In this document: positions 957-54,444 of the stretch, one piece after another
Layout: each line of letters starts with the position of its first letter
Numbering within the stretch: position 1 is the stretch's first letter
From: a bacterium
Lineage (GTDB): Bacteria; Krumholzibacteriota; Krumholzibacteriia; LZORAL124-64-63
Reading direction: 5' to 3'
Assembly (NCBI GenBank): GCA_016706845.1
Contig: JADJIV010000022.1
Coordinates: 412-64,411 of the forward strand
Length of the DNA: 64,000 nt
Notes under the pieces: generated by a model
Seen by the model: only the letters and a program-made list of their open reading frames with translations
Databases searched by the model: none
Told to the model about the DNA's origin: nothing
Program-made: the position numbers and the translations under genes

Positions 957-1094
957 GCAAGCCGGATCTGCCTGTTCCCGGCCGCGGGGGAATTTTTGGT
1001 CTCCAGGCTTGTAGGAACGGATTGGTTGCCGTTACGCCGGTCTGCCGCTACTGTCGGCCGGAGCCCCGCCCCGCCCCTACGAGGATCGAGGATC

Positions 1095-2066
1095 ATGTTG
1101 CGGTCACTGATCGTCCTGGTGTCCCTGACCGTCGCTACCGCGACGGCCGCCGGCCCCTGGCCCGTCCGGGTCCCCGCGGACGTCACCCGCCCCGACCTAC
1201 CCCCCTCCCCCGCCCTGCGCGGCGGCGACCCCGGCTGCGCCAGCGCGCCCGTCCAGGCCGTCGCCCCGGGCCTCGATACGGTGATCACCGGCGACACCAC
1301 CGGCGGCGTCTCGGCGGTCGACGGTTACGGCTGCGTGGGCTGGGTCGAGAGCGGCCCCGAATCGGTGCTGCTGCTGGACGTGCCCGTTTCGACGACCCTG
1401 CACCTGATCCTGGAGTCGACCGCCGACCTGGACCTGTTCCTGCTCTCGGGCTGCGACAGCGACCTCTGCGTGGCCCACCACACCCGCGAGTTCGTGGTCG
1501 CGGTCGATGGGCGGGCCGAGCCCTGGGTCGTGGTCATCGACGGCTACCAGGGCGCCTCGGGCCCCTGGAGCCTGACGGTGCGGGCCTTCCCTGCGGGCGT
1601 GCCGCCGGAGGTCTGCGCGACCGCCACGCCCCTGCTCTGCCGGACGTCGGCCCACAACGCCGAGGGCAGCCTCTACGGCCTGCCCAACCAGCTCTTCACC
1701 GACGACTGCGCGGGCTACCTCGAGGCGGGCGGCGAGCAGTGGTACGCGGTGAGCCTGGCCGACAGCGCCCGGGCCACGCTCACCCTGAGCGAACAGACCT
1801 TCGACGCCGCGTTGTGGCTCTTCGACGGCTGCGAGGCGACCGCCGACTGCGTCGCCTTCGCCGACCACGGCGTCTCGGGGTCGCAGGAGGTCCTGGTCTA
1901 CCGCAACCTCACCGGCGCGCGGCGGACCTACTACCTCGCCGTGGACGCGGCCCAGCCGCCGTCAGGCGAGTTCGACGGGTACTACTTCCTGGAGTCGGTC
2001 TGCACGGACGGGATCGTCGCCAACGAAACAACGGCCTGGGGCACCATCAAGTCCTTCTACCGTTGA
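1095..2066 (+). CDS. Secreted protein with two pre-peptidase C-terminal (PPC)-like beta-sandwich repeats. It ends in a WGTIKSFYR tail.
   Basis: Internal ATG at 1095 of ORF 996..2066 gives MLRSLIVLVSLTVATATAAG, which looks like a signal peptide. There are two copies of a PPC-like pattern: LHLILESTADLDLFLLSGCDSDLC...VVVIDGYQG and WYAVSLADSARATLTLSEQTFDAALWLFDGCEATADC...YYLAVDAAQ. Confidence 0.55.
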   Translation: MLRSLIVLVSLTVATATAAGPWPVRVPADVTRPDLPPSPALRGGDPGCASAPVQAVAPGLDTVITGDTTGGVSAVDGYGCVGWVESGPESVLLLDVPVSTTLHLILESTADLDLFLLSGCDSDLCVAHHTREFVVAVDGRAEPWVVVIDGYQGASGPWSLTVRAFPAGVPPEVCATATPLLCRTSAHNAEGSLYGLPNQLFTDDCAGYLEAGGEQWYAVSLADSARATLTLSEQTFDAALWLFDGCEATADCVAFADHGVSGSQEVLVYRNLTGARRTYYLAVDAAQPPSGEFDGYYFLESVCTDGIVANETTAWGTIKSFYR

Positions 2067-2182
2067 GGGTTGCACCCCGCAAATTCCCGCCGTCGGTTTG
2101 CATTCTTGATCTCCCGGACTGCTGCCTATAGTCTTGGCGGATCCGACGGACCGCCTCTCTCGGGAGACCAGGAAGGATCCCC

Positions 2183-3871
2183 ATGTCCGCTGCCGCGAAA
2201 CCCTCCCGGCGCCCGCCCCGCGTCGCCGCCACCGCCCAGAGCATGGCCGAGAAACAGCGCGAGATCTCCATCAGCGAGTTCTTCACCAAGAACCGCCACC
2301 TGCTGGGCTTCGATTCGCCCGCCAAGGCGCTGATGACGACCATCAAGGAGGCCGTCGACAACTCCCTGGACGCCTGCGAGGAGGCCGGCATCCTGCCCGA
2401 GGTGCTGGTCGAGATCCAGCCGGTGGGCAACGGCAAGCGCAACGGCGCCGAGGTCGAGACGGTCCTGGAACTCGAGGCCGAGCCGGAGAAGCCGTCGCGC
2501 CGCAAGGGCGCCGTGGCCCCGGTCAAGGAGGAGCGCTACCGGGTCATCGTGGAGGACAACGGGCCGGGCATCGTGCGCCAGCAGGTGCCGCGCATCTTCG
2601 GCAAGCTGTTGTACGGATCGAAGTTCCACAGCCTGCGCCAGAGCCGCGGCCAGCAGGGCATCGGCATCTCGGCCGCCGGCATGTACGGGCAGCTGACCAC
2701 CGGCAAGCCGGTGGTGATCGTCAGCCGCACCGCCCAGCAGGACCGCGGCCACCGCTTCGAACTCATGCTGGACATGAAGAAGAACGAGCCGGTCGTCCAG
2801 AAGGACGAGGAGTGCGACTGGGAGCGCCCCCACGGCACCCGCGTGGAGATCGAGCTGACGGGCTCCTACAAGCGCGGCCAGCACTCCGTCGACGTCTACC
2901 TCCAGCAGACCGCCGTCGCGAACCCGCACGTGCGGCTGATCTACCGCTCGCCGCGCGGCGACGAGATGATCTACCCGCGGGCCGCCGCCGAGCTGCCCGT
3001 CGAGGCGCACGAGATCCAGCCCCACCCCTACGGCGTGGAGCTGGGCATGCTGCTGCGGATGCTCAAGGAGACCAAGCAGCGCAACCTGTCGGGCTTCCTG
3101 CGCCACGAGTTCTGCCGGGTCGGCCCCAAGACCGCCGACCAGATCCTCGAGACCGCCGGCCTGCCTGCGACCAAGTCGCCGCGCCACACCGACCAGGACG
3201 AGGTCCAGCGGCTGATGGACGCCATCGCCGCCACCAAGATCCCCAGCCCGCCCACCGACTGCCTCTCGCCCATCGGCGAGCCGCTGGTGCTGGCCGGGCT
3301 GAAGCAGCGGCTGGACGCCGAGTTCACGACGGCCGTCACCCGCCCGCCGTCGGTCTACCGCGGCAACCCCTTCCAGGTGGAAGTGGGCCTGGCCTACGGC
3401 GGCGGCCTGCCCGCCGACGACCTGGCCCAGGTGCTGCGCTTCGCCAACCGCGTGCCGCTGCTCTACCAGGCCTCGGCCTGCGCCATCCACAAGGCCGTGC
3501 TGACCAACAACTGGCGCAGCTACGGCCTGCAGCAGTCCCGCGGCGCCCTGCCGTCGGGGCCGCTGGTGATCTTCGTGCACATGGCGTCGGTCTGGGTGCC
3601 GTTCACTTCGGAGAGCAAGGAGGCGGTGGCCCACTACCCGGAGATCGTCAAGGAGATCAGGCTGGCGCTGCAGGAGGCCGGCCGCCAGCTGCAGATCCAC
3701 ATCCGCAGGCGCGTGCGCGAGCGCGAGGCGCTGAAGAAGCAGGGCTATATCCAGAAGTACATTCCCCACATCGGCGACGCGCTGCGCGACATGCTGCACC
3801 TGGACGAGGGCGAGCGGACGGAGATCATCGCCACGCTCACCGACACCCTGGAACGCAGCCGCAAGATTTAA
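2183..3871 (+). CDS. top6B: DNA topoisomerase VI subunit B (type IIB topoisomerase ATPase, GHKL/Bergerat fold)
   Basis: 562-aa ORF. It contains [42 protein letters not shown] (N-box) and IVEDNGPGI (G1 box). AGGAAGGA SD about 6 nt before ATG 2183. An alternative in-frame ATG is at 2243. Confidence 0.9.
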
Positions 3872-7533: not shown

Positions 7534-8178
7534 GTGCGCAGCATCCTGGTCGTCGAACGCAAGCATCTGTTCCCCGGCCTGAGCCCGCAGGGGTTCCTGC
7601 CGCCGGGCAGCGTCGACCTCGACGCCCTGCTGCCGCACCTGTTCTTCGCCGAGCGCGATCACATGGAGCGCAACTCCCACTACAAGCAGATCATCCCCTA
7701 CCTGGTGCTGCACCGCGGCGAGGGGCCGACGGCCCGCGTCCTCTGCTACCAGCGCCGCAGCAAGCACACCGAGCGCCGCCTCGGCGGGCTGTGGTCGGTG
7801 GGCTTCGGCGGGCACGTCGAGCCCCTGGACCGCGACGACCCGGCCATCGCCGCCCACGGCCTGCTGCTCGTGAGCGCGCTGCGGGAACTGGTCGAGGAGA
7901 CCGGCCTGCAGGTGGGCGCGTCCGCCCTGGCGCCCGTCGGGTTCATCAACTCCGACGCGCAGGACGTGTCGAGCGTGCACTTCGGGGTGGTCTTCCGCAT
8001 CGACCTCGACGGCGTCGACGGCTCCGACGAGGACCTGCTGGCGACCGTCAGCGCGCAGGCCGAGCCGGAGCGCGCCCTGTGGCTGCCCGAGGCCGGGCTG
8101 CGCGGCATGGCCGCGCCGGGCGCGGGGCCGGACGGCGGTGACTTCGAGGACTGGTCGAGGATCGTCGTGAACCGCTGA
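7534..8178 (+). CDS. NUDIX-domain hydrolase-like protein
   Basis: 214-aa ORF with GTG start. GGLWSVGFGGHVEP...ALRELVEETGL resembles a NUDIX box (Gx5Ex7REUxEExGU) with an insertion. Confidence 0.5.
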   Translation: MRSILVVERKHLFPGLSPQGFLPPGSVDLDALLPHLFFAERDHMERNSHYKQIIPYLVLHRGEGPTARVLCYQRRSKHTERRLGGLWSVGFGGHVEPLDRDDPAIAAHGLLLVSALRELVEETGLQVGASALAPVGFINSDAQDVSSVHFGVVFRIDLDGVDGSDEDLLATVSAQAEPERALWLPEAGLRGMAAPGAGPDGGDFEDWSRIVVNR

Positions 8179-8444
8179 TAACCGGCGCCGGGAGGAATCG
8201 GGGACACGAACGGACCATCGCTGCTGCTTGCCTGCTCGCCACCGCCGCCGCCGCCTCCGACACCGTCACCATCCCGCCCCTGCAGAGCGGCGACGACGAG
8301 CGCGAGGACGGAGCCGGCGCCTGCCCGCATGAGACCAAATTCACCGCCGGCACCATCTCGGCGGCCCTGCACCTGAAGGTCGGGGGCGAGGCGGCGGGCT
8401 GCGACTCGGAATGGGCCACGAGCCTGGAGTTCGGGCTCGACGCC

Positions 8445-8861
8445 GTGCCGGCGCAGCAGCCGGTGATCTCGGCCGTGCTGACGGTCCGCAAGACCGGCTA
8501 CTCCGACGACTCCGAAGGCTTCCCCTACGTCGGCGTCTTCGCCTACCCCGCGACGGGCGCGCCGGTGACGGTGGACCGCGACGAACTGACCCCCGACACC
8601 GCGCTGGACGTGGTGTTCCCGTCGTCGGCCAACGTCGACCTGAACTTCGACGTCACCGCGGCGGTGCAGACCCTCGTCGACGCCGGCGCGGCGCGGGCGG
8701 GCTTCCTGCTGGCCGGCGCGTACTCCGAGGTGGGCTACGAGGACTGGATTTCCGTGGGGGGCGCGGGCTACGCGGTCCCGCCGCGCCTGGTCGTGGTCTA
8801 CGAGGGCACCGTCCCGACGAGCGCGGGCAGCTGGTCGTCCATCAAGGCCGCCTACCGCTGA
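8445..8861 (+). CDS. Small secreted hypothetical protein ending in a SWSSIKAAYR tail. The true 5' end is probably upstream (about 8200) but has no canonical start codon.
   Basis: The track ORF starts at GTG 8445. The same frame is open from 8163 and reads ...RTIAAACLLATAAAASDTVTIPPLQSGDD..., which looks like a signal peptide, after a GGGAGGA SD at 8189-8195. No ATG, GTG or TTG lies between 8163 and 8445. Confidence 0.45.
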   Translation: MPAQQPVISAVLTVRKTGYSDDSEGFPYVGVFAYPATGAPVTVDRDELTPDTALDVVFPSSANVDLNFDVTAAVQTLVDAGAARAGFLLAGAYSEVGYEDWISVGGAGYAVPPRLVVVYEGTVPTSAGSWSSIKAAYR

Positions 8862-30461: not shown

Positions 30462-31623
30462 CTAGTTCGGCGGCGGCGGCGGCTCGTCGTTCAGCGACAT
30501 GTAGTGGTCGTAGGAGATGAAGCGGCGCACCGTGCCGTCGGCGCCCGAGAGCGTGAACACGTAGGCGCCGTAGTTGACGCCGCCGCCGGCGATCCGCACG
30601 TCGACCACGCCGATGGCGACCGGGTCGGAGGTCGGGCTGACGTCCCGGAAGGTCATCTCGTAGACGCCGGTGTCCGAGAAGATCTGCACGCGGTCGTTGC
30701 CGGTGTCCGCCACGAAGATCTTGCCTTGGCCGTCGCTCGCCAGGGCCGTGGGCGTGTCGAACTCCCCCGCCGCGTCGCTGGGGCCGCCCACCCAGGTGTC
30801 GTCCTCGCAGTCCTGCGCGTCGCCGAGGGTGTAGGCGGACTGCGGCTGGGGTTCGCAGTCCTCCAGGTCGAAGACGACGGCCAGGCCGCGCCAGGGGTGC
30901 GGCCCCTCGGGAGTAGCTGCGTTATCCGTCAGGACCGGCGTCGGGTCGAAGCGGGTGACCCAGTTGCGCGCGGTGTCGGCGTCGCAGATCAGCAGCATGC
31001 CCGACTCGTCGCTCAGCATGCCGGCGGGCACGTGGACGGCGCGCGTCGACGGGCCCTCGTCGCGGCAGAGGATGCCCATCGGGGCCATGTCGCCGCCCGC
31101 GTACCAGGCGAAGCGGTGGACCACGCCCGAATCGGGGTCGGCGAGGTAGAGGAACGTCTCGGCGGTCCGCAGCCAGCTCCGCCAGGCCGGTCCGGCTGGC
31201 GTAGAGGTGGGTGACCCGCTGCACGTCCGTCAGCGTCGCGGACCCGACCGGCGACAGGTCGGAGGTCTGGAACGCGCTGAGCCGGTTCGCGCCCGCCTCC
31301 CAGACGAAGACCAGGCGGGCGTCCTCGTCGGTGCAGACGGCGACCGGGTCGGCGAAACCGTCCACGCGCGAGAACTCCTCGTAGTCGAGGGTGCGCTTGA
31401 CGAGACTGCCGTCGGCGCCCACGACGAAGAGGCGGCCGATGGCCGCGACCATCTGCCGCGCGCCGGGGTCGACGAACAGCGTATCGACCGTGTAGGCGTT
31501 GGTCGAGAACAGGCCCACGGCCCGCGGCGCGGTGATCTTGACGCCGCAGCCGATGGCCGCGGCCGCCAGCAGCGCCGCCAGCAGCAGGCAGGCCGCGCGG
31601 CCGTCCGGGCGCGGGCGGATCAT
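30462..31623 (-). pseudogene. NHL-repeat lipoprotein, one frameshift as assembled
   Basis: ATG 31623 (MIRPRPDGRAACLLLAALLAAAAIGCG lipobox) reads in frame to ...VTHLYASRTGLAELAA. After about 31165-31170 the sequence continues in the frame of ORF 30462..31124: TAETFLYLADPDSGVVHRFAWYAGG...GKIFVADTGNDRVQIFSDTGVY (NHL repeat). Confidence 0.65.
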
Positions 31624-32657
31624 CGCCGCCTCCTTCCGTCGGGCAGCGGCGACAGGTCGATGGACAGGTAGTGGATCGTGCCGAAGGCGCCCATGTCGCT
31701 GATGGCGTAGTCGAGCCGGATCCGCCACTGGTCGCGCGCCAGGTTCACGCCGAAGCCGGCCGCGAGGCCGCCCTCGGCGCGGTTGGTCTCGTAGCCGCCG
31801 CGCAGCAGCAGGCGCTCGGCCAGGCCCAGCTCGGCGCCGCCGCGGAAGCTCTCGGAGGCGTCGGTGGGGTGGTGGAAGTCGGACGTCGTCAGCAGGGTCG
31901 TCCCGCTGCCCAGGCGCCAGGTGTAGGCCAGCCCGAAGCTGCCGGAGGTCGGCGCCTGGAAGCTCTGGAATTCCAGCGGCGTGGCGTAGCCGGGGCCCAG
32001 CGGCGGCGGCCTGCCGCCCGGCCGCAGGTCGGGGCCGAAATTGCGCACGGCGAAGCCGACGCGCATGTCCCCCAGGCCCGTGTAGTAGAGCGCGCCGAGG
32101 TCCATCAGCAGGCCGCGCACCTCGTAGTCGTCCAGGTTCTCCTGGTAGACCTTCGCGGTGCCGCCCAGCGAGAAGCGGTCGGTCATCGCCTTGGCGACGC
32201 TCGCCGCCAGCACGAACTGGTTGGCGTTGAAGGTGTCGCCGGTCCCCTCCTGGTGGAACTCGTCGGTGCGCGGGATCTCGCCCGAGCGCAGCATCGACCC
32301 CGACAGCGCGAAGCCGTAGTTCTGGCGGCGCCAGCTGCAGGAGGCGTACTCCAGGTCGATGTCGGCGGCGTAGGCCACGTGGGAGAAGAACAGGTTGGTC
32401 AGGCCGGGCGTGCGCATGAGCCCCGCGGGGTTCCAGTAGGCGGCCGGGCCGTCGACGGCGCAGGCGACGTAGGCGCGGCCGAGGCCGATCGCGCGCGCGC
32501 CGACCGGCAGGCGCAGGAACTGGGCGCCGGCGGTGCCCACGTTCTCGTCGCCGTAGAATTCGAGCACGTCCCCCGCATGCGCGGCGCCGGACAGGGCCAG
32601 CAGCAGCAGCGCCGCCGCCAGTGTCCGCGCTCCGGTCCTCTTCGCACGGGTCACCAT
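31620..32657 (-). CDS. PorV/PorQ-family outer-membrane beta-barrel protein (T9SS-associated family)
   Basis: C-terminal 345 aa of ORF 31620..35495. MVTRAKRTGARTLAAALLLLALSGAAHA signal. GTAGAQFLRLPVGARAIGLGRAYVACAVDGPAAYWNPAGL is the hallmark N-terminal block of PorV/UPF0164-type barrels. Alternating beta-strand pattern to the C-terminus. Confidence 0.72.
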   Translation of the reverse strand: MVTRAKRTGARTLAAALLLLALSGAAHAGDVLEFYGDENVGTAGAQFLRLPVGARAIGLGRAYVACAVDGPAAYWNPAGLMRTPGLTNLFFSHVAYAADIDLEYASCSWRRQNYGFALSGSMLRSGEIPRTDEFHQEGTGDTFNANQFVLAASVAKAMTDRFSLGGTAKVYQENLDDYEVRGLLMDLGALYYTGLGDMRVGFAVRNFGPDLRPGGRPPPLGPGYATPLEFQSFQAPTSGSFGLAYTWRLGSGTTLLTTSDFHHPTDASESFRGGAELGLAERLLLRGGYETNRAEGGLAAGFGVNLARDQWRIRLDYAISDMGAFGTIHYLSIDLSPLPDGRRRR

Positions 32658-35551
32658 GAGAAGCTCACCCCCAGCAGGAGCATGCGGGGATCCTCGATGT
32701 AGCTGGGGTCGATCTGACTCTTGACGTACTCGCGCGAGTAGGTGTTCAGGACCGGCCCCTCCTCGCCGTACCAGTCGGCGTAGTTGTCGACCCAGCCCGG
32801 GTTGAGGTCCCCGACCTGGTAGCCCGTGCCCGTCCAGGGGTTGATCCGCCGGTAGTTCTTGTGGTCCAGGACGTTGCGGCCCTCGAAGAAGAGGGTCAGC
32901 CGCTGCCGGCGCGACAGGTCCCAGGTCTTGTTGAAGCGCAGGTTGAGCGACTGCTTCGTCGGCCCCAGTCCCGAGTAGGGGTCGCCGTAGACGTACTCGC
33001 CGAACACGGGGTTCTCCGGGTCGGCGAAGGCGCGCGGCGTGTAGCGCTGGCCGGCCTCGGCCTGGAAGAGCAGGTTGAGGCTCCAGTCGGCGGGCACGGT
33101 CCATCCGAAGATGCGGGGGCGGTCCTTCCGCTCGACGGTGAAGTCGAGGTTGAAGGAGACCTTCCAGGGCTTGTCCCAGAGCAGGGGGTTGCGCTTCAGC
33201 CCGCCGATGCTGGCGGTGGGCGTGTAGGCCTCGTCGTAGACGGCCAGGAGGTAGGCCTCGTCGGCGTCGCTGTTGGTGCCGGTGCTGCGCGAGAGCTCGA
33301 GGCTCGCCGAGCCGCTGAGCCACCGCGTGGTGCGCTTGATGACGCTGAGCTCCACGCCCAGGCTGCGCGCCGAGTCCCCGTTGAAGTAGCGCACGGGCTC
33401 GATGGTGACCGTGCCGGTGTCGTTCGGGTCCGGGGTCTCGTCGGCGCCGATGTTCACCGGCTTCATCTGGACCGACTTGGCGTAGCCGTAGATGTCGCGG
33501 TTGAAGAAGGTCACGCCCAGGCTCCACAGCCCGGAGAACTCGTGCTGGACGCCGGTCTCGTACTCCACGGTGATCTTGGGGTCGAGGTTCGGGTTGCCCA
33601 GCAGCTGGATCTTGGTCGCCGTCTGCGACTGCAGCTGCGGGTAGACGTACGCGTAACGCGGCCACTGCGAGAAGTGGCCGTAGTTGAAGAAGAACTTGTC
33701 CTTCTCCGTCACCGGGAAGCTGACCCCCAGGCGCGGCGAGACGCGCATCTTCCAGCTGCGCAGGAAGAACTCGACGGTGTTGTCGTAGAACTCGTCGGCC
33801 ATGTCGTCGAAGATGAACAGGTAGTCCTCGGAGTGGTCCATGACGTACTCGACTTCGCGGCCCGGCGCCCAGGCGTCGAGGCGGATGCCGGCGTTCACGA
33901 TCATGCCCTTGTAGTTGACCGTATCCTGGAAGTAGGCGGCGCCCACGATGGGGTGCACCTTGAAGATGTCCTCCTTGATGCCCAGCTTGCCGGGCGGCGG
34001 CGAGCCCAGCGAGGACTGCAGGTCCACCAGTTGCATCTCGGTGAAGTTCAGCTCCAGGCCCGTCTTGAACTGGTTGGTCTCGTTGGCCACCCAGGCGTAG
34101 GTCGTCTTCAGGTTCCACGACTCGGAGTAGTGGTCGTGCCAGCGGTCGGCCGAGCCGAAGGCGAGACCCGCGGGCGACGGCGGGGAGTTGATGAGCGGGT
34201 AGGTCGTGAAGTCGTCGTTGCCGTTGATGTTGGCGTGCTGGCGCGAGAAGTTGCGGCCGAGGTTGACCTCGAAGTAGTCCTTCTCCCCCATCACCCAGCG
34301 GTAGTAGAGCTGGCTCAGGATGCTCTCGTTGGTGAAGACGAGGTAGCGGTCCAGGTTGTCCTGGAAGGGCCGCGGGTAGCCCTCGCCCGCCAGCTCGAAG
34401 CCCTGGCTGATCTCGAACTGCCGGTTCACCGTGAAGTTGAGCTTGTGCCGGGGATTGATGGCCCAGGTCCACTTCGCCATGCCGTTCCACTCGTTCTGCT
34501 GGCGCGGGGCGACCCAGTTGAAGTCGTACAGGGGCGAGGTGAGCCGCCGCGTGCGGGAGTAGATCGGCAGGGGGCCGTCGCGCACGTCCATCGAGCCGGA
34601 CAGCAGCAGGTAGGTCTTGCCGGGCACGTCCAGCCCCAGCGCGCCGAGGGCGCCGCTCAGGGGGTCCGGGCCCGAGAGGGAGGCCTTGACCACGTCGATG
34701 TTCTGGGAGCGGTCCAGCTCGTAGGGCTGCCGCCAGTCCGGCGCGGCGGAGGCGTCGACGCCGCCCCAGTGGTCGCGCTTCCAGCTGGCCTTGCCGCTCC
34801 AGCGCTCGCTGCCCTCCTTGGTGGACACGTTCACCACGCCCGAGACGGCCTGCCCGTACTCCGCGTTGAAGCCGCCGGTGAGCACCTCGATCTCGTTGAT
34901 GATCGAGGGGTCGATGGCGTAGCCGTAGCCGCCGCCGGCCAGGGGGTCGTTGACGCTGACGCCGTCGATGATGAACTGCGTGTCGTCGGCGCGGCCGCCG
35001 CGGATGTGGATCTCGTTGTCCTGCAGCGTCACGCCGGGCTTCTGCGCGATCATCTCGACCAGGTTGTCCAGCGGCAGGGCGTCCATCTGCTCCGACGTCA
35101 GCATGTGCGAGGAGCCGGTGCGCTCGATCTCGATGAGCCGGCGCTCCGCCGTGACCTCGATGGCGTCGGTGTAGATCGCCTCCACCGCCAGGCGGAACTC
35201 GATCTCGGCCACCTCGCCCGGGGCCACCGTCACGGTCTCGGAGCCCAGGGCGTAGGAGATGTAGGACGCGCGCACGGTGTAGGTGCCCGGGCGCAGCCCG
35301 GTCAGGTAGAACTGGCCGTCCTGCAGCGCGATCGTGCCGATGCTCGAGCTGGCGATGTAGACGTTCGTGTAGGCCAGCGGCTGCCCGTCCTCCGCGTCGC
35401 GGACGAAGCCCTTGATCATGGCCGGCCGCTGCGTATCGGAGCCGGGGCGCAGGCCCTGCGCCGCGGCCGGGACCACGACGGCGAGCAGCGCGCACGCCAG
35501 CGCGAACGACAGGAGCGGCGCCGCGCGCCGCGGCTGCAGCAGGGCGCTCAC
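32651..35551 (-). CDS. TonB-dependent-receptor-like outer-membrane protein (CarboxypepD_reg domain + plug + large barrel)
   Basis: GTG 35551 within ORF 32651..36274 (VSALLQPRRAAPLLSFALACALLAVVVPAAAQG). IKGFVRDAEDGQPLAYTNVYI...LTGLRPGTYTVRASYISY (CarboxypepD_reg). DALPLDNLVEMIAQKPGVTLQDNEIHIRGGRADDTQFIIDGVSVNDP (plug). The C-terminus LLLGVSFSW ends in an aromatic residue. Confidence 0.85.
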   Translation of the reverse strand: MSALLQPRRAAPLLSFALACALLAVVVPAAAQGLRPGSDTQRPAMIKGFVRDAEDGQPLAYTNVYIASSSIGTIALQDGQFYLTGLRPGTYTVRASYISYALGSETVTVAPGEVAEIEFRLAVEAIYTDAIEVTAERRLIEIERTGSSHMLTSEQMDALPLDNLVEMIAQKPGVTLQDNEIHIRGGRADDTQFIIDGVSVNDPLAGGGYGYAIDPSIINEIEVLTGGFNAEYGQAVSGVVNVSTKEGSERWSGKASWKRDHWGGVDASAAPDWRQPYELDRSQNIDVVKASLSGPDPLSGALGALGLDVPGKTYLLLSGSMDVRDGPLPIYSRTRRLTSPLYDFNWVAPRQQNEWNGMAKWTWAINPRHKLNFTVNRQFEISQGFELAGEGYPRPFQDNLDRYLVFTNESILSQLYYRWVMGEKDYFEVNLGRNFSRQHANINGNDDFTTYPLINSPPSPAGLAFGSADRWHDHYSESWNLKTTYAWVANETNQFKTGLELNFTEMQLVDLQSSLGSPPPGKLGIKEDIFKVHPIVGAAYFQDTVNYKGMIVNAGIRLDAWAPGREVEYVMDHSEDYLFIFDDMADEFYDNTVEFFLRSWKMRVSPRLGVSFPVTEKDKFFFNYGHFSQWPRYAYVYPQLQSQTATKIQLLGNPNLDPKITVEYETGVQHEFSGLWSLGVTFFNRDIYGYAKSVQMKPVNIGADETPDPNDTGTVTIEPVRYFNGDSARSLGVELSVIKRTTRWLSGSASLELSRSTGTNSDADEAYLLAVYDEAYTPTASIGGLKRNPLLWDKPWKVSFNLDFTVERKDRPRIFGWTVPADWSLNLLFQAEAGQRYTPRAFADPENPVFGEYVYGDPYSGLGPTKQSLNLRFNKTWDLSRRQRLTLFFEGRNVLDHKNYRRINPWTGTGYQVGDLNPGWVDNYADWYGEEGPVLNTYSREYVKSQIDPSYIEDPRMLLLGVSFSW

Positions 35552-37020
35552 GGCAGGACCACCCCCAGTTCCTGCGAGAGCAGGGCTCGCACGACCGCCA
35601 GCCCGCTGGCCGGCACGCAGTAGTCCATCTGCACCGTCACGGTCACCGTGTTGGCGAAGGTCCCGGACGACGTGGGCGGGTTGCGCACCGCCACGAAGGG
35701 ACGGCTGGAGGGGCGGCCATTGATGTACCGGTGGTACTCCATCCGGTAGAGGTACTTCGTCGTGCTGGAGTCCGCGCCGGCCATGCCGACCCCGGCGGAG
35801 ATGTTGCCGGTGAAGAACATCTCCGGCAGTCCAGCCTTCAGCGGCATGCCCTTCTTGGTGGACGGGATGTAGAAGGTGGGCTGGTCCGGGGTGGCCCGGA
35901 AGCCCAGCGTGTTGGTGACGAAGCTGGGCGGCGGCGCGCCCGTCACGCCGATCAGGGCCGGCGAGACCAGCAGCAGCTTGCCCGGCTCGTAACCGGCGGG
36001 GGGCTGTACGTACTGGGCCACCAGCTCCGCCACGGCGGCCAGGCGCGGCGAGGCGCTGGCGCCGGTGTACCAGAACACCGCCGGGAACTGGCGCAGGGTC
36101 TCGAGCAGGACCCACGTCCGGTCGGGCAGCCCGTCGGAGATCTCGTAGAGGGACCAGCCGCCCGGCCCGTAGATCGAGTCCATGACCGCGTGGTAGAACG
36201 CGCGGTCGAAGTTGCCGACGCTGTCGTCCACCAGCAGCACGTCGCTGAGCACGGGCCGGGCCTCCCAGGTCCACGCGAAGCGCGTCGTGGCGTCGGCCTC
36301 GTCGCTGACCCGGATGGTCAGCGTGCGTTCGCCCGGCGGGATCTGGCCGTGCAGGTCGATCTCGAACGTGCCGAGGGCGGGGTCGTTGAGGCGCTTGATC
36401 ACCGGGCGCAGGGCGGGGTCCGCGCCGGGCTCGCCCTCCGGCAGGGGCGCCAGCAGGGTGTCCGCCGTGTCCAGGTGGTAGACGACCGAGTCGTCCATCG
36501 TCACGTTGCCGTCGAGGTCCAGGGCGAAGAGGCGGAAGTCGGCCGAGCTGTAGCTCCAGAAGAACGTGTCGTAATCGCTGACGAAGTTGATCACCGGCGG
36601 GAAGTTCCGCAGCGGGATGTACTGGCTGACCGTGTCGCTGGAGGCGCCGCGGTCGTCGCGGCAGGCCACGTGGATCATGGCCTGCGCCCGGCCGGTGTCG
36701 TCGGTCTCGAAGGTCATGGTCGTGTCGGTGGCGGTGGTCGTGATCCAGGGGGCGACGATGCCCTCCTCGGTCTCGATCGACACGTAGTACGCCTCGACGA
36801 AGCCGTCCTCGTCGGTGCCCGACCAGTGGAAGGTGCGGCTGAAGTAGCTCGTGGGGTTCAGCACGCCCCCCTCGGGCGGGGTCACGAAGATGCGCGCGAC
36901 CGGGCGCCGGTTGGGCAGCGAGTCGGGATCGAAGGCCTCGTTGCCGCAGCCGGCCGCCAGCGCGCAGAACAGCGCGGCGAGGGACAGGGCCAGCGTCACG
37001 GCGAGCGGCGGCGACCTCAT
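35548..37020 (-). CDS. Hypothetical lipoprotein (490 aa), no family recognised
   Basis: MRSPPLAVTLALSLAALFCALAAGCGNE lipobox. Contains FHWSGTDEDGFVEAYYVSIE-type Ig-like segments. Its start overlaps the upstream stop (ATGA 37017-37020) and its stop overlaps the TBDR-like GTG (GTGA 35548-35551). Confidence 0.6.
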   Translation of the reverse strand: MRSPPLAVTLALSLAALFCALAAGCGNEAFDPDSLPNRRPVARIFVTPPEGGVLNPTSYFSRTFHWSGTDEDGFVEAYYVSIETEEGIVAPWITTTATDTTMTFETDDTGRAQAMIHVACRDDRGASSDTVSQYIPLRNFPPVINFVSDYDTFFWSYSSADFRLFALDLDGNVTMDDSVVYHLDTADTLLAPLPEGEPGADPALRPVIKRLNDPALGTFEIDLHGQIPPGERTLTIRVSDEADATTRFAWTWEARPVLSDVLLVDDSVGNFDRAFYHAVMDSIYGPGGWSLYEISDGLPDRTWVLLETLRQFPAVFWYTGASASPRLAAVAELVAQYVQPPAGYEPGKLLLVSPALIGVTGAPPPSFVTNTLGFRATPDQPTFYIPSTKKGMPLKAGLPEMFFTGNISAGVGMAGADSSTTKYLYRMEYHRYINGRPSSRPFVAVRNPPTSSGTFANTVTVTVQMDYCVPASGLAVVRALLSQELGVVLP

Positions 37021-51008: not shown

Positions 51009-53798
51009 ATGTCGCACCGCTCCTTCGCGCGTAGTTTCTTCCGCATGCCCGTTGTCGCTGTCGCGTTCGTTCTGATCGCCGTGGCAGTCTCCCCGATGGC
51101 CGCCGGCGCGACCGGCAACGAGAACTGGTCGAGGGAATTCGGCCGCCAGTACGATCTCGACGGGGGCGTCCTCGCATCGACGATGTTCGAAGGCCAGCTG
51201 ATCGTGGGTGGCTATTTCACCTCCAACGGCAGCACGGCGCTCCATGGCGTCGCGCGCTGGAGCGGCACGGGCTGGCGCCCAATGGGCGCCGGCATCCCCA
51301 GCGGCACCGTCAGGTCCCTGGCCGTCTACCAGGGCGCCCTCTACGCGAACGGATGGCGCTGGGATGGCGAGGTTTGGACCAACACCCTGGTGGTCGACGG
51401 GCAGGTGGACTGCCTGGCGGTGCACGATGGTTCGCTTCGTGGCCGGCGGCCTGTTCACGTCAACCCGCGGCGTGCCCGCGGACAACCTGCTCGCCTGGGA
51501 CGGCGTCGATGTCGCCGAGCTCGGTGGAGGCTGCAACAACAGGGTCCAGGCCCTGGCCTCCGACGGCGCACGACTCTACGCAGGCGGGTCCTTCACGCAG
51601 GCGGGCGACGTCGCGGCCCAGCGCATCGCCGGCTGGGATGGGACCTCGTGGTCCGACCTCGCCGGGGGCATCAGCGGGGACCTGTTCTGGTGCTGTGTCG
51701 ATTATCAAGAGTCGTATACCTACCGGGCGAGCGTCGATGCGCTTCGCTGCCGCCGCCGACGATGGTCTGTACGTCGGCGGCCAGTTCCAACTGGCCGGCG
51801 GGGACTCCATCTCCGCACTGGCCCGCTGGGACGGCACGACCTGGCACGAACCGGAAGGTCTGGCGCTCGGGGGAGTCTGGGTATGGTACGGTGGGAACGC
51901 CTACCAGTATTATCCGCCCAATGTCCACGCCCTGGCGACGGACCCTTCCGGCGGGCTCATCGCGGGCGGCAGCTTCAAGGCGCAGAACCAGCAACATTAC
52001 GGTCTTGTCCGACACGACGAAGCCGGCTGGAGCGTGGTGGGTGGCGGCACCGGTCCCTACCGGGACGACTCCGCGCCCAGCATCCACACGCTGCCGCCTA
52101 CGCAAACCGGGCTGATCGTGGGCGGCTGGTTCCCGCAGATCGGCGACATCGACGCCGTCAACGCCGCGCGGTGGGATGGATCCGGCTGGTCGCCGCTCGT
52201 CAACGAACACGGGCTGGGCACCGACGGCTACGTCTTCACCAGCCTGGAGTACCAGGGCGACCTGGTCTTCGCCGGCGGCTTCGGGAACGCGGGCGGGTTG
52301 CCGGCCGGTTGCCTCGCCGCATTTCACGATGACCACTGGGAGAACATCGGCGTGCACGGGGTCGCAGGATCCTGGCCGCGGATCCGCGATGCATGGTGGA
52401 GTTCGAACAGGATCTCGTGGTCGCCGGCAAGCTCACTGCGGCGGACGGCGTTCCTGGTCTCAACATCGCCTCGCTGGGACGGCGTCTCCCGGCAGGCGAT
52501 GGGTGCCGGCCTGCCCTGCACCGAAGTGGCCGCGCCTGCGTGCACCAGGGTTGGCTTTACGCGGCCGGCGGGGATCTGCTCTTATCCCCTCCCACCGCAG
52601 GAAGGCGAAGCGACCGCCCAATCAGGGTTTCGTCTATCGCTGGGACGGCGCGACCTGGGAGCAGATCATCGTCACCGACGAGTACCTCGAAGGGGCGGTG
52701 AGCGACCTCGTCTCGTACAACGGGGAACTGATCGTCGCCGGTTCGTTCACGACGGCCAACGAGCAACCCATGCGCGGGTTGCTGGCCTGGGATGGCACGG
52801 CGTGCCGGGAGTTCGGCGGCGGCGTCCTGTACTGGGCCCGCTGCCTGCTGGCGGTCGACGACGACCTCTACGTCGGCGGCAGGCTCATCGAAACCGGCGA
52901 TCTGCTCGTGAACAACCTCGCGCGCTGGGACGGCGCGGCCTGGCACGACGTCGCCGGCGGCCTCCGCGGCTTCATGTCCAATTACGGCGTCTTCACCCTG
53001 GCCGAGACGGGAGGCCGCCTCTGCGTCGGCGGACGGGTCTACATGGCCGACGACGTCCCGGCCGACAACGTGGCCATCCTGGATCACGGTACCTGGAGCG
53101 CCCTGGGCAGCGGGGCCGGCCCGACCGTGATCACGCTGGCCTGGCGGCACGGCGACCTGTATGTCGGCGGCGCGATCGATATGGCCGGCAGCCAGATCGT
53201 CGGCGGCATCTCCTGCTGGGACGGACTCGCGGTGCCGGTGGCGGTGTCGGAGTTCAGCGGCCGGCGCGACGGCTTCATGGTGGAACTGCGGTGGACCGCC
53301 TCCCAGGATCTTTCGGGCGGCGGCTTCATCGTCTGGCGTGACGACACCGCAGGCGTACCACAACCGCTGGATGTCGGACCGGTCGTCGACGGCGAAGCTT
53401 ACCTCTGCCGCGATGACGCCGCGCCGGCCGCTGCGACGCTGTACCGTCTGCAGTGGCAGCGCGACGACGGCGCGACCGAGTGGCTGGCGGAGGCGACCAT
53501 CGGCGCGGCCGAACTGCCGCGCGCGGTCCGCTTCGCCGGCGTCCATCCCAATCCCTTCAACCCCCGCGTCACGGCCGCCTTCGTCGTCGGCGCGCCGCAA
53601 AGGGTGCGCATCGCCGTCGCGGACGCGCGGGGCCGCGAGGTGGCCGTGCTGGCCGACCGGCAATGCGAAGCCGGCCGGCACGAGGTCGTCTGGGAGGGAC
53701 GCGACGGCGACGGCCGCGCGCTGCCGGCGGGCGTCTATTTCCTGAGCCTGAGGGGAGACGACGGGCGGGATACGGTCAAGGTGGTGCTCGTGCAGTGA
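51009..53798 (+). pseudogene. Large beta-propeller-like repeat protein (A-x-W-D-G-x-x-W ... L-Y-x-G-G-x-F repeats) with a T9SS/FlgD-type CTD. At least six frameshifts as assembled.
   Basis: The sensible sequence hops frames: 0 (51009 to ~51431, MSHRSFARSFFRMPVVAVAFVLIAVAVSP...ARWSGTGWRPMG), 1 (RFVAGGLFTSTRGVPADNLLAWDG...), 2 from ~51720 (...DDGLYVGGQFQLAGGDSISALARWDGTTW...), 1 from ~52392 (MVEFEQDLVVAGKL...), 2 from ~52467 (WDGVSRQAMGAGL), 1 from ~52520 (ACVHQGWLYAAGG), and 0 from ~52560-52620 (NQGFVYRWDGATWEQ... to the end). The end reads VHPNPFNPRV...LPAGVYFLSLRGDDGRDTVKVVLVQ. Confidence 0.7.
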
Positions 53799-53826: not shown

Positions 53827-54444
53827 TTGATCAACTACCGGATACCGGTCGGCGCCGTTGCGGTGTGCGTGATGTGGTGGTCGTCCGCGGCATGCCAGCC
53901 TCTTCCGCCCGAGGTCGATAGCTACTTCGAGGCGGATCACGAGGGATGGATCGCTACGGGAGGCCAGATCGCCCATCACGACGACGGCGGGTACGAGAAC
54001 GGCTACCTCGAATTCGAAGACACCACCGCCGACGACGGCTACCTCACGGCGCCGGTGCAGTACCTGGGAGATCTCAGGGGTTACGTATCAGGCATCTTCC
54101 GCTTCCACCTCAAGACCACCCACGACAACGGCGGGGCGATGCAATCGCTATGGGGCCGCGTGGAAATCCGTTCGGGCCCGTCGATCGCGACGATGGACAT
54201 CGTCCCTCAGGAGCAGCTGGCGGGCTGGACGACATTCATCATGGAACTCTACCCATCACTCTGGGGCTGCGAACCCCTGCAGTGGATATCGCTGCTGTCG
54301 AACGTAACCGAGATCCGCATCTACGTGGACGCCCAGGAGGGCGTTCTCGATCGCGTCGGCCTCGATCACGTCAGGATGTATCCCGCCGAGATTCCGACAG
54401 AATCCTGGAGCTGGGGCGCGGTCAAGGGGTTGTACGGGCGCTGA
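53827..54444 (+). CDS. Small secreted or lipoprotein-like hypothetical protein ending in a SWGAVKGLYGR tail
   Basis: 205-aa ORF with TTG start. MINYRIPVGAVAVCVMWWSSAAC is signal- or lipobox-like. No family recognised. Confidence 0.5.
   Translation: MINYRIPVGAVAVCVMWWSSAACQPLPPEVDSYFEADHEGWIATGGQIAHHDDGGYENGYLEFEDTTADDGYLTAPVQYLGDLRGYVSGIFRFHLKTTHDNGGAMQSLWGRVEIRSGPSIATMDIVPQEQLAGWTTFIMELYPSLWGCEPLQWISLLSNVTEIRIYVDAQEGVLDRVGLDHVRMYPAEIPTESWSWGAVKGLYGR

Follow-up and report, generated by a model that had tools for sequence, protein, structure and literature searches.

Three small proteins encoded in a 64,000-nucleotide stretch of contig JADJIV010000022.1 (assembly GCA_016706845.1; the whole stretch is called the window below) end, immediately before the stop codon, in a very similar short tail. 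The host genome, from an uncultured bacterium of the phylum Krumholzibacteriota, comprised 3.37 Mb on 51 contigs with 71% GC and was 84% complete. A sequence-only reading of the window had singled out the three endings, and each was found in the sequence as that reading had given it. Moreover, analysis of the whole genome showed the tail on about 70 unrelated exported proteins, with dozens in each relative tested, and indicated that it is very probably a protein address label not described before. The three copies in the window, with their matches to a hidden Markov model (HMM) of the tail, are as follows.

2013 to 2063, stop codon 2064-2066, plus strand: tag copy 1, IVANETTAWGTIKSFYR, read from the sequence and its open reading frame (ORF); HMM match C22:2418-2474, 30.2 bits.
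8805 to 8858, stop codon 8859-8861, plus strand: tag copy 2, GTVPTSAGSWSSIKAAYR, at the end of ORF 8142-8861; HMM match C22:9216-9269, 25.4 bits.
54388 to 54441, stop codon 54442-54444, plus strand: tag copy 3, EIPTESWSWGAVKGLYGR; HMM match C22:54796-54852, 27.6 bits.

Copy 1 closes a 323-amino-acid signal-peptide protein (1095-2066, plus strand) that contains two PPC/collagen-binding-like beta-sandwiches and ends ...CTDGIVANETTAWGTIKSFYR-TGA. The residues TAWGTIKSFYR occupy 2031-2063, and the conserved part begins at about 2013 (IVANETTAWGTIKSFYR). Copy 3 closes a 205-amino-acid signal-peptide protein (53827-54444, plus strand) with a weak Laminin_B-like match, which ends ...PAEIPTESWSWGAVKGLYGR-TGA; its tail, SWSWGAVKGLYGR, ends at 54441 and is a variant with an extra Gly before the final Arg. 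An exact database look-up of this 205-amino-acid protein returned no match. Copy 2 closes the ORF to 8861, which ends ...EGTVPTSAGSWSSIKAAYR-TGA, with the last residue of GSWSSIKAAYR at 8858. When compared with one another, the three passengers were dissimilar, as had been claimed. Signal-peptide-like N termini had also been claimed for all three, and they were present on the ORFs that end at 2066 and 54444. ORF 8142-8861 contains a signal-peptide-like stretch in frame (TIAAACLLATAAAAS), with GGAGG about 20 nucleotides upstream of it, but ATG, GTG, and TTG were all absent upstream of that stretch. Only CTG at 8151 and ATC at 8217 remain as start candidates before the signal-like segment, and the first canonical start, GTG at 8445, would give a 138-amino-acid product lacking a signal peptide. 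The gene that carries copy 2 may thus have a noncanonical start, be decaying, or contain a sequence error.

When the whole genome was translated in six frames, the pattern W[GS].[IV]K..Y.{0,1}R$ closed 28 ORFs and a slightly relaxed pattern closed 67. The bare core, W[GS].[IV]K..Y, occurred 45 times in the six-frame ORFs, always within six residues of a stop and never internally. An HMM of 19 positions built from the genome's own tails gave 69 matches at 21 to 40 bits, and the next match scored 11 bits. The regular-expression and HMM scans that the sequence-only reading had proposed thus returned 67 to 69 copies in this genome, and chance, which it had named as a possible explanation, is excluded by the gap in scores and by the restriction of the core to the vicinity of stops. 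The consensus was [VT]-[AP]-N-E-[DE]-x-[ST]-W-[GS]-x-[VIL]-K-x-[LMI]-[YF]-[RK]-COOH, giving a tail of 16 to 19 residues in which W, G/S, V/I/L, K, and Y/F were near-invariant within the genome, and loosening the conserved positions one by one gained almost no extra ORFs. The position four residues after the Trp was Lys in 67 of 67 tails, even though Arg outnumbers Lys 4.5 to 1 across the genome. The last residue was R or K in 75% of tails, and the core lay 0 to 4 residues from the terminal carboxylate. About one-third of the tails also had a Cys 2 to 6 residues ahead of the V-A-N-E linker (ESVC at 2001-2012 in the window, for example), which may be the last disulfide of the passenger domain or part of the signal.

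A shared ending could also reflect a feature that is not of the protein at all, such as a DNA repeat at gene ends, an assembly artifact, or a longer domain that has been cut off. The conserved residues were encoded by varied codons: Gly by four, Leu by four, and Ser by both AGC/AGT and TCC/TCG, which are disjoint families. Synonymous and nonsynonymous variation was found at every position of the tail, the tail genes used all three stop codons, and the DNA 3′ of the stop was unrelated between copies. Moreover, the same ending was found in hundreds of independent assemblies. The sequence-only reading had worried that a longer domain might be truncated here, but no contig end lay within 200 nucleotides of any tail stop, and nothing like a type IX secretion system (T9SS) C-terminal domain (CTD) was encoded downstream of the tail stops in any frame of the same strand within 600 nucleotides. 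A nonprotein origin is therefore refuted, with a residual likelihood that is negligible. We conclude from the variety of synonymous codons that selection acts on the tail at the protein level.

The proteins that carry the tail appear to be exported. Most have an N terminus of the form M-[KR], a hydrophobic stretch, and AxA, that is, a plain Sec signal peptide. By a crude hydrophobicity score, 76% of tail ORFs passed as signal-peptide proteins compared with 31% of other ORFs of similar size, and the predicted enrichment was thus observed. The carriers had a median size of 225 amino acids, compared with 540 amino acids for proteins with a T9SS CTD. Their passenger domains included choice-of-anchor C/DUF642, lamin-tail (LTD), cohesin, PPC, CBM4_9-like, Laminin_B-like, and SGNH-like domains, which look like binding modules typical of surfaces. 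The AlphaFold2 (AF2) model of the PPC protein of copy 1 found its best fold match in the tandem collagen-binding domains s3a-s3b of ColG (5iku), and another family of tail proteins was modeled as a CBM-like jelly roll.

Bacterial surface proteins are decided by C-terminal signals that include LPXTG, PEP-CTERM, and the T9SS CTD, and the tail was compared with each kind. NCBIfam and Pfam scans of ten full tail proteins (NCBIfam E values up to 1) placed no model on the tail, and ten isolated tails scanned against NCBIfam at E values up to 10 gave no sorting-domain model, including WGxxGxxG-CTERM (NF038039). No description of the tag was found in the literature on C termini or T9SS of Eisenbacteria and Krumholzibacteriota, on choice-of-anchor proteins, or on new sorting signals. 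As the sequence-only reading had supposed, the tag therefore matched none of the named systems searched while occurring on Sec-signal proteins of many unrelated folds.

The T9SS type A CTD (Por_Secre_tail, TIGR04183/PF18962; here FlgD_ig-like, PF13860) likewise occupies the extreme C terminus of Sec-exported proteins in the same genomes, and its ending, L-hydrophobic-[RK]-COOH, may be shared by the tail. A terminal [LMIV]-hydrophobic-[RK] was present in 31 of 67 tails (46%) and 106 of 128 CTDs (83%) but in only 38 of 2645 background genes (1.4%). The CTD is a folded, seven-stranded, Ig-like beta-sandwich of about 70 to 100 residues that is matched by a family HMM over about 70 residues, whereas the tail is 16 to 19 residues long, is predicted to be flexible, and has no match to the CTD model; the tail is thus far shorter than a CTD, as had been noted. 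The tail was absent from most T9SS-bearing genomes of a phylum that includes a metagenome-assembled genome (MAG) labeled Gemmatimonadetes. In characterized T9SS cargo, the last 13 residues of the CTD and the lysines in motif E are needed, and the final 22 residues of the CTD from HBP35 are enough for secretion of green fluorescent protein (reviewed in PMC10202324).

The tail also resembles the short C-terminal tags that mark numerous unrelated exported proteins within a single organism, namely PEP-CTERM/exosortase (TIGR02595, PF07589), LPXTG, GlyGly-CTERM, MYXO-CTERM, and PGF-CTERM. It has in common with them a conserved signature, a more hydrophobic stretch, and a basic end, and a choice-of-anchor protein is present among its cargo. 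Known small sorting signals are defined in the Haft preprint by three parts, a signature motif, a transmembrane helix, and an Arg cluster, whereas the tail has a nine-residue amphipathic stretch and one basic residue. The claim that the tail contains no hydrophobic helix was borne out, as no hydrophobic run was long enough to span a membrane, and exosortase (PF09721) gave no match in the 84%-complete host genome. The beta-signal of outer membrane proteins belongs to a barrel and has an aromatic end and alternating hydrophobic residues, whereas the tail follows soluble beta-sandwich passengers, ends in R/K, and has hydrophobic residues spaced at 0, 3, 6, and 7. The eukaryotic retrieval signals KDEL and KKXX are alike in concept only, in that a few C-terminal residues read by a receptor set localization; they have no sequence or evolutionary relation to the tail and serve another compartment with other machinery.

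Comparison of related passengers indicated that the tail takes the place of known sorting signals. About 128 ORFs of the genome end in a FlgD-Ig-like T9SS CTD, and the two endings were mutually exclusive: the tail was found on 0 of 144 ORFs with a CTD match, and no tail ORF carried a CTD. For 15 tail proteins, a CTD-bearing paralog was encoded in the same genome. In the clearest pairs, the two endings swapped at the same junction: homology extended up to the passenger's last strand, beyond which one protein had the tail and the other a linker and CTD, as in the junction sequences ...GVFYDNVNFHTETVANEDLSWGGVKSLYK and ...GTFYDNLDFHLDTTSAVPSGTVAAGAMLHQNYPNPFNPS... of one such pair. The tail protein C3_74143 was 53 to 61% identical to the CTD proteins C3_81407 and C42_419, and C15_89494 with C10_2348 and C6_35124 formed a second such set. 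When one passenger family was searched for in 185,579 species genomes, 80 loci were recovered, and their endings differed by lineage. MAGs labeled Krumholzibacteriota or Eisenbacteria had the tail or a T9SS CTD; Planctomycetota, Rhodoferax, and Gammaproteobacteria had PEP-CTERM (VPEPSS...RRRR); and Acidobacteriota had a longer, unrelated extension. PEP-CTERM thus occurs on orthologs of a passenger that carries the tail in the host lineage, and two protein-database entries (P0025 and P0026) had PEP-CTERM, with its membrane-spanning hydrophobic run, in place of the tail. One tail cargo matched choice-of-anchor C, and the choice-of-anchor pattern has in the past been a route to the recognition of new sorting signals. 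We conclude that the tail is exchangeable for the T9SS CTD and for PEP-CTERM, in both position and evolution.

To place the tail among relatives, genomes were scanned with the tail HMM at E values up to 1e-3 per genome, with the following results.

Host phylum Krumholzibacteriota (81 genera, 9 families): 208 of 208 genomes with a match.
Eisenbacteria sample: 79 of 101 genomes with a match; 22 of 101 tag-negative.
Phylum of the MAG labeled Gemmatimonadetes: 20 of 101 genomes with a match.
Planctomycetota sample: 0 of 101 genomes with a match.
Acidobacteriota sample: 0 of 121 genomes with a match.
Five single genomes of other groups: 0 of 5 with a match.

Genomes of the host phylum, which includes Krumholzibacteriia MAGs (L016 and L027) and a MAG of the same genus labeled Latescibacterota (L029), often had at least 43 matches each. 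The Eisenbacteria MAGs, RBG_16_71_46 among them, belong to a separate phylum, and their tails were nearly identical to the W form of the host, as in PVPVETSSWGAIKALYR. About a dozen of the 20 matches in the Gemmatimonadetes-labeled phylum were convincing, and real tails such as TAVESSSWGEVKVLFR were among them. A protein search with the last 40 residues returned orthologs only and not tails in general.

The sequence of the tail drifts among homologs. A variant of the tail was present on 60 of 62 checked homologs of the PPC protein of the window. Trp was replaced by F, L, or A in 38 of those 60, and Lys was replaced by Arg in 10 of 60; one form seen was SLGSV[KR]ALFR. The gene for topoisomerase VI subunit B (2183-3871) lies directly downstream of the PPC-tail gene in the window (region 996-3871), and the same gene order was kept in two distant relatives (L103 and L104). 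PPC homologs that lie directly upstream of topoisomerase VI subunit B, as in the window, are therefore taken as orthologs, and one such syntenic ortholog was among those with Arg in place of Lys. In one sub-lineage (P0060-P0062 and P0064), the core SWGAIKGLYG was followed by 15 to 22 Gly-rich residues, the last of them basic (...GTTGKIRR), and thus the core is not always strictly terminal. We conclude that the tail is genuine and strongly conserved, and that it tags the C termini of exported proteins in multiple phyla.

Structural models suggested that the tail is not part of the passenger fold. In a first AF2 model, built on an alignment of 39 sequences, the passenger had a confidence score (pLDDT) above 90, and the tail, residues 224-238, had a pLDDT below 50 and no secondary structure. 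In the model of the PPC protein of the window (59 sequences), the passenger again exceeded 90, the linker at 305-314 was coil, and W315-F321 formed a short helix with a pLDDT of 53 to 60. Hydrophobic residues of the tail fall at positions 0, 3, 6, and 7 and basic residues at 4 and 8, after a start (S-x-x-E) that resembles a capping box. A short amphipathic helix is thus weakly supported for the nine-residue segment W-G-x-V-K-x-L-Y-R. We conclude that, as modeled, the tail is a free peptide outside the passenger fold, coil or helix alike.

One way in which a free peptide could direct an exported protein is by being read by a receptor, and the genome was examined for a secretion route. SprA, four PorV-like barrels, and two C25 (PorU-like) proteins were encoded. 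A type II secretion system was also considered as the route and was rejected, as the secretins were of the type IV pilus type and no such system was evident. With the secretins placed in clusters of type IV pilus genes, T9SS is left as the one evident route by which folded proteins could cross the outer membrane, and T9SS was present in every tag-bearing lineage found. On contig C16, the stretch at 9 to 13 kb looked like the type IV pilus region at 38 to 47 kb of contig C8 (PilT, prepilin peptidase, and secretin) in a second copy, either degraded or a strain variant, which hints at strain heterogeneity in the bin.

One of the PorV-like barrels is encoded in the window, as is a CTD protein that neighbors a tail gene.

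31620 to 32693, minus strand: PorV-like outer membrane barrel, one of four in the genome; C22:32541-32975, 36.9 bits to NF033710.
52176 to 53798, plus strand: FlgD-Ig-like T9SS CTD protein, CTD at about 53541-53798; ends 29 nucleotides upstream of the gene of copy 3.

The PorV-like barrels are a candidate class of reader or shuttle for the tail. The barrel in the window belongs to a run of consecutive minus-strand genes (31620-37020) that encode a lipoprotein-like protein, a barrel resembling TonB-dependent receptors with a CarboxypepD_reg domain, and the PorV-like barrel itself. A second PorV-like barrel, at 43625-44557 of contig C2, adjoins a similar receptor, a GWxTD-like protein, and the ExbB/ExbD genes. 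The PorV-like barrels here may have TonB-type receptors as partners, rather than T9SS alone. As for the CTD neighbor, a codirectional CTD gene ended within 150 nucleotides upstream of 5 of 51 tail genes compared with 37 of 2752 other genes, the example in the window being 53798/53827. Three of the five pairs, all on contig C9, were copies of a single module arranged in tandem. The pairing of CTD and tail genes could be functional or could reflect mere clustering of secretome genes.

The two C25 peptidases, C14:58-2253 and C15:36880-41058, are divergent, with about 26% mutual identity, and the one on C15 itself ends in a CTD and has three tail genes flanking it. The sequence-only reading had suggested that PorU-like processing enzymes might co-occur with the tag. 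Homologs of the two peptidases were, however, found in 92 and 99 of the 101 Eisenbacteria sampled, in tag-positive and tag-negative genomes alike. Neither thus gained phyletic support as a reader of the tag.

Our preferred interpretation, to which we give a probability of about 0.5, is that the tail serves as a linear sorting signal at the C terminus and is bound by a receptor of the envelope, preferably on the T9SS route. A carrier would be exported to the periplasm by Sec via its N-terminal signal peptide, as the crude score suggests, and its passenger domain would fold. The last 16 to 19 residues are predicted to stay free, as a flexible acidic linker, [VT]-[AP]-N-E-x-x-[ST], followed by the nine-residue amphipathic segment with its basic end. 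An envelope receptor, most likely one of the T9SS route such as a PorV-like shuttle or the translocon, would then bind the peptide and set the destination of the protein. The tail may thereby be a minimal alternative to the CTD of about 85 residues, suited to small, single-domain binding proteins bound for the surface or the medium. The parts of this interpretation differ in strength. That the tail is a sorting or anchoring tag read by a receptor, as the sequence-only reading had in essence proposed, is likely, and protein-level selection, phylum-wide conservation, and the position shared with CTD and PEP-CTERM support it. That the receptor belongs to the T9SS route is tentative. Similarly tentative is the idea that the linear peptide takes folded proteins to the outer membrane or through it, either as a minimal T9SS signal with a lineage-specific shuttle or as an address for an undescribed envelope sorting machine common to several uncultured phyla (Krumholzibacteriota, Eisenbacteria, and part of the Gemmatimonadetes-labeled phylum).

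Several observations weigh against our preferred interpretation. SprA was found in 96 of 101 genomes of the Gemmatimonadetes-labeled phylum compared with tails in 20, and CTD proteins were present in tag-negative Eisenbacteria, such that the presence of SprA or T9SS does not separate tag-positive from tag-negative genomes and was rejected as a predictor of the tag. Profile-profile comparison with hhalign found no relation between tail and CTD and no alignment of the tail to the last strand of the CTD, and thus the final tripeptide that both have may have arisen by convergence or by chance. The phyletic pattern of the C25 peptidases counts in the same direction, and clustering of gene neighborhoods found no recurrent gene family beside the tail genes. 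Moreover, the helix appeared in one of the two AF2 models only, at low confidence, and only two phyla, both lacking T9SS, served as negative controls of the genome scans. Since T9SS is not sufficient, no relation to the CTD was found, the C25 peptidases do not track the tag, and no neighbor recurs, a lineage-specific reader is needed, but the analysis found none.

Some of the same observations would suit the main rival, in which the tail is a retention or anchoring tag that acts independently of T9SS by noncovalent binding to the outer membrane's inner or outer leaflet, lipopolysaccharide, peptidoglycan, or a dedicated non-T9SS receptor. If so, tail proteins would be held in or at the envelope, and CTD proteins would be exported and attached or released. 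The failure of T9SS presence to predict the tag and the absence of homology between tail and CTD are consistent with such a division, as is the small size of the tail proteins (median 225 versus 540 amino acids). The tail is a free peptide in the AF2 models, and W0, V3, L6, and Y7 together with K4 and R8 would suit an amphipathic helix of the kind modeled at W315-F321. A segment of nine residues is, however, short for binding a membrane stably, and the fact that G/S, W, and K hardly vary within a genome resembles recognition by a protein rather than by a lipid. Moreover, in other lineages the orthologous passengers carry signals for delivery to the surface (PEP-CTERM and T9SS CTD), and CBM-, PPC-, LTD-, and cohesin-like cargo would be expected outside the cell. 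We therefore regard retention as rather unlikely, though it is the strongest of the alternatives.

The invariant Lys of the host tails raised the idea that its epsilon-amine is joined covalently to peptidoglycan, as in Braun lipoprotein, or to a protein or glycan, as by the Lys of the sortase pilin motif. Retention of Lys in 67 of 67 tails despite the excess of Arg would accord with a nucleophile. Braun lipoprotein ends in ...K-Y-R-K and is joined by L,D-transpeptidases, and the K-x-L-Y-R of the tail is loosely similar, which we treat as a lead only. The C-terminal Lys of Braun lipoprotein is indispensable, whereas the Lys of the tail lies 4 to 5 residues from the end rather than at it and gives way to Arg in 10 of 60 PPC homologs, including the ortholog syntenic with topoisomerase VI subunit B. 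Covalent anchoring was largely dropped on account of these Lys-to-Arg orthologs and is very improbable. Scarcely more probable is that the tail is a handle for a periplasmic protease or chaperone, of the PDZ type or tail specific (DegP/Prc-like), that controls turnover or folding of small secreted proteins. The genome does encode a DegP-like protease with two PDZ domains, and a strictly C-terminal position would suit readers of a free C terminus. The distance from core to carboxylate, however, varies from 0 to 4 residues here and reaches 22 in some homologs, which fits poorly with fixed-register reading by PDZ domains. Exchange with CTD and PEP-CTERM at one and the same junction would also be unexpected for a degron, and it is hard to rationalize why every species genome tested of the host phylum should keep a degron on about 2% of its genes.

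C-terminal sorting signals are a kind of signal already known, and what is new in the tail would be its design, which has neither a transmembrane helix nor a folded domain. To our knowledge, the recognition of each new C-terminal sorting signal has been followed by that of a new processing enzyme or secretion route. In one phylum, the tag marks about 2% of the genes per species genome tested, and it is found again in at least two others; it would help annotators to spot the surface and secreted proteome of several uncultured phyla of soil and sediment. It also bears on the minimum sequence that a T9SS-type system needs for recognition of its cargo. The contrast between tag-positive and tag-negative genomes within Eisenbacteria and the Gemmatimonadetes-labeled phylum should make the reader findable by phylogenetic profiling, and once the reader is identified, the tail would provide a very short, portable tag.

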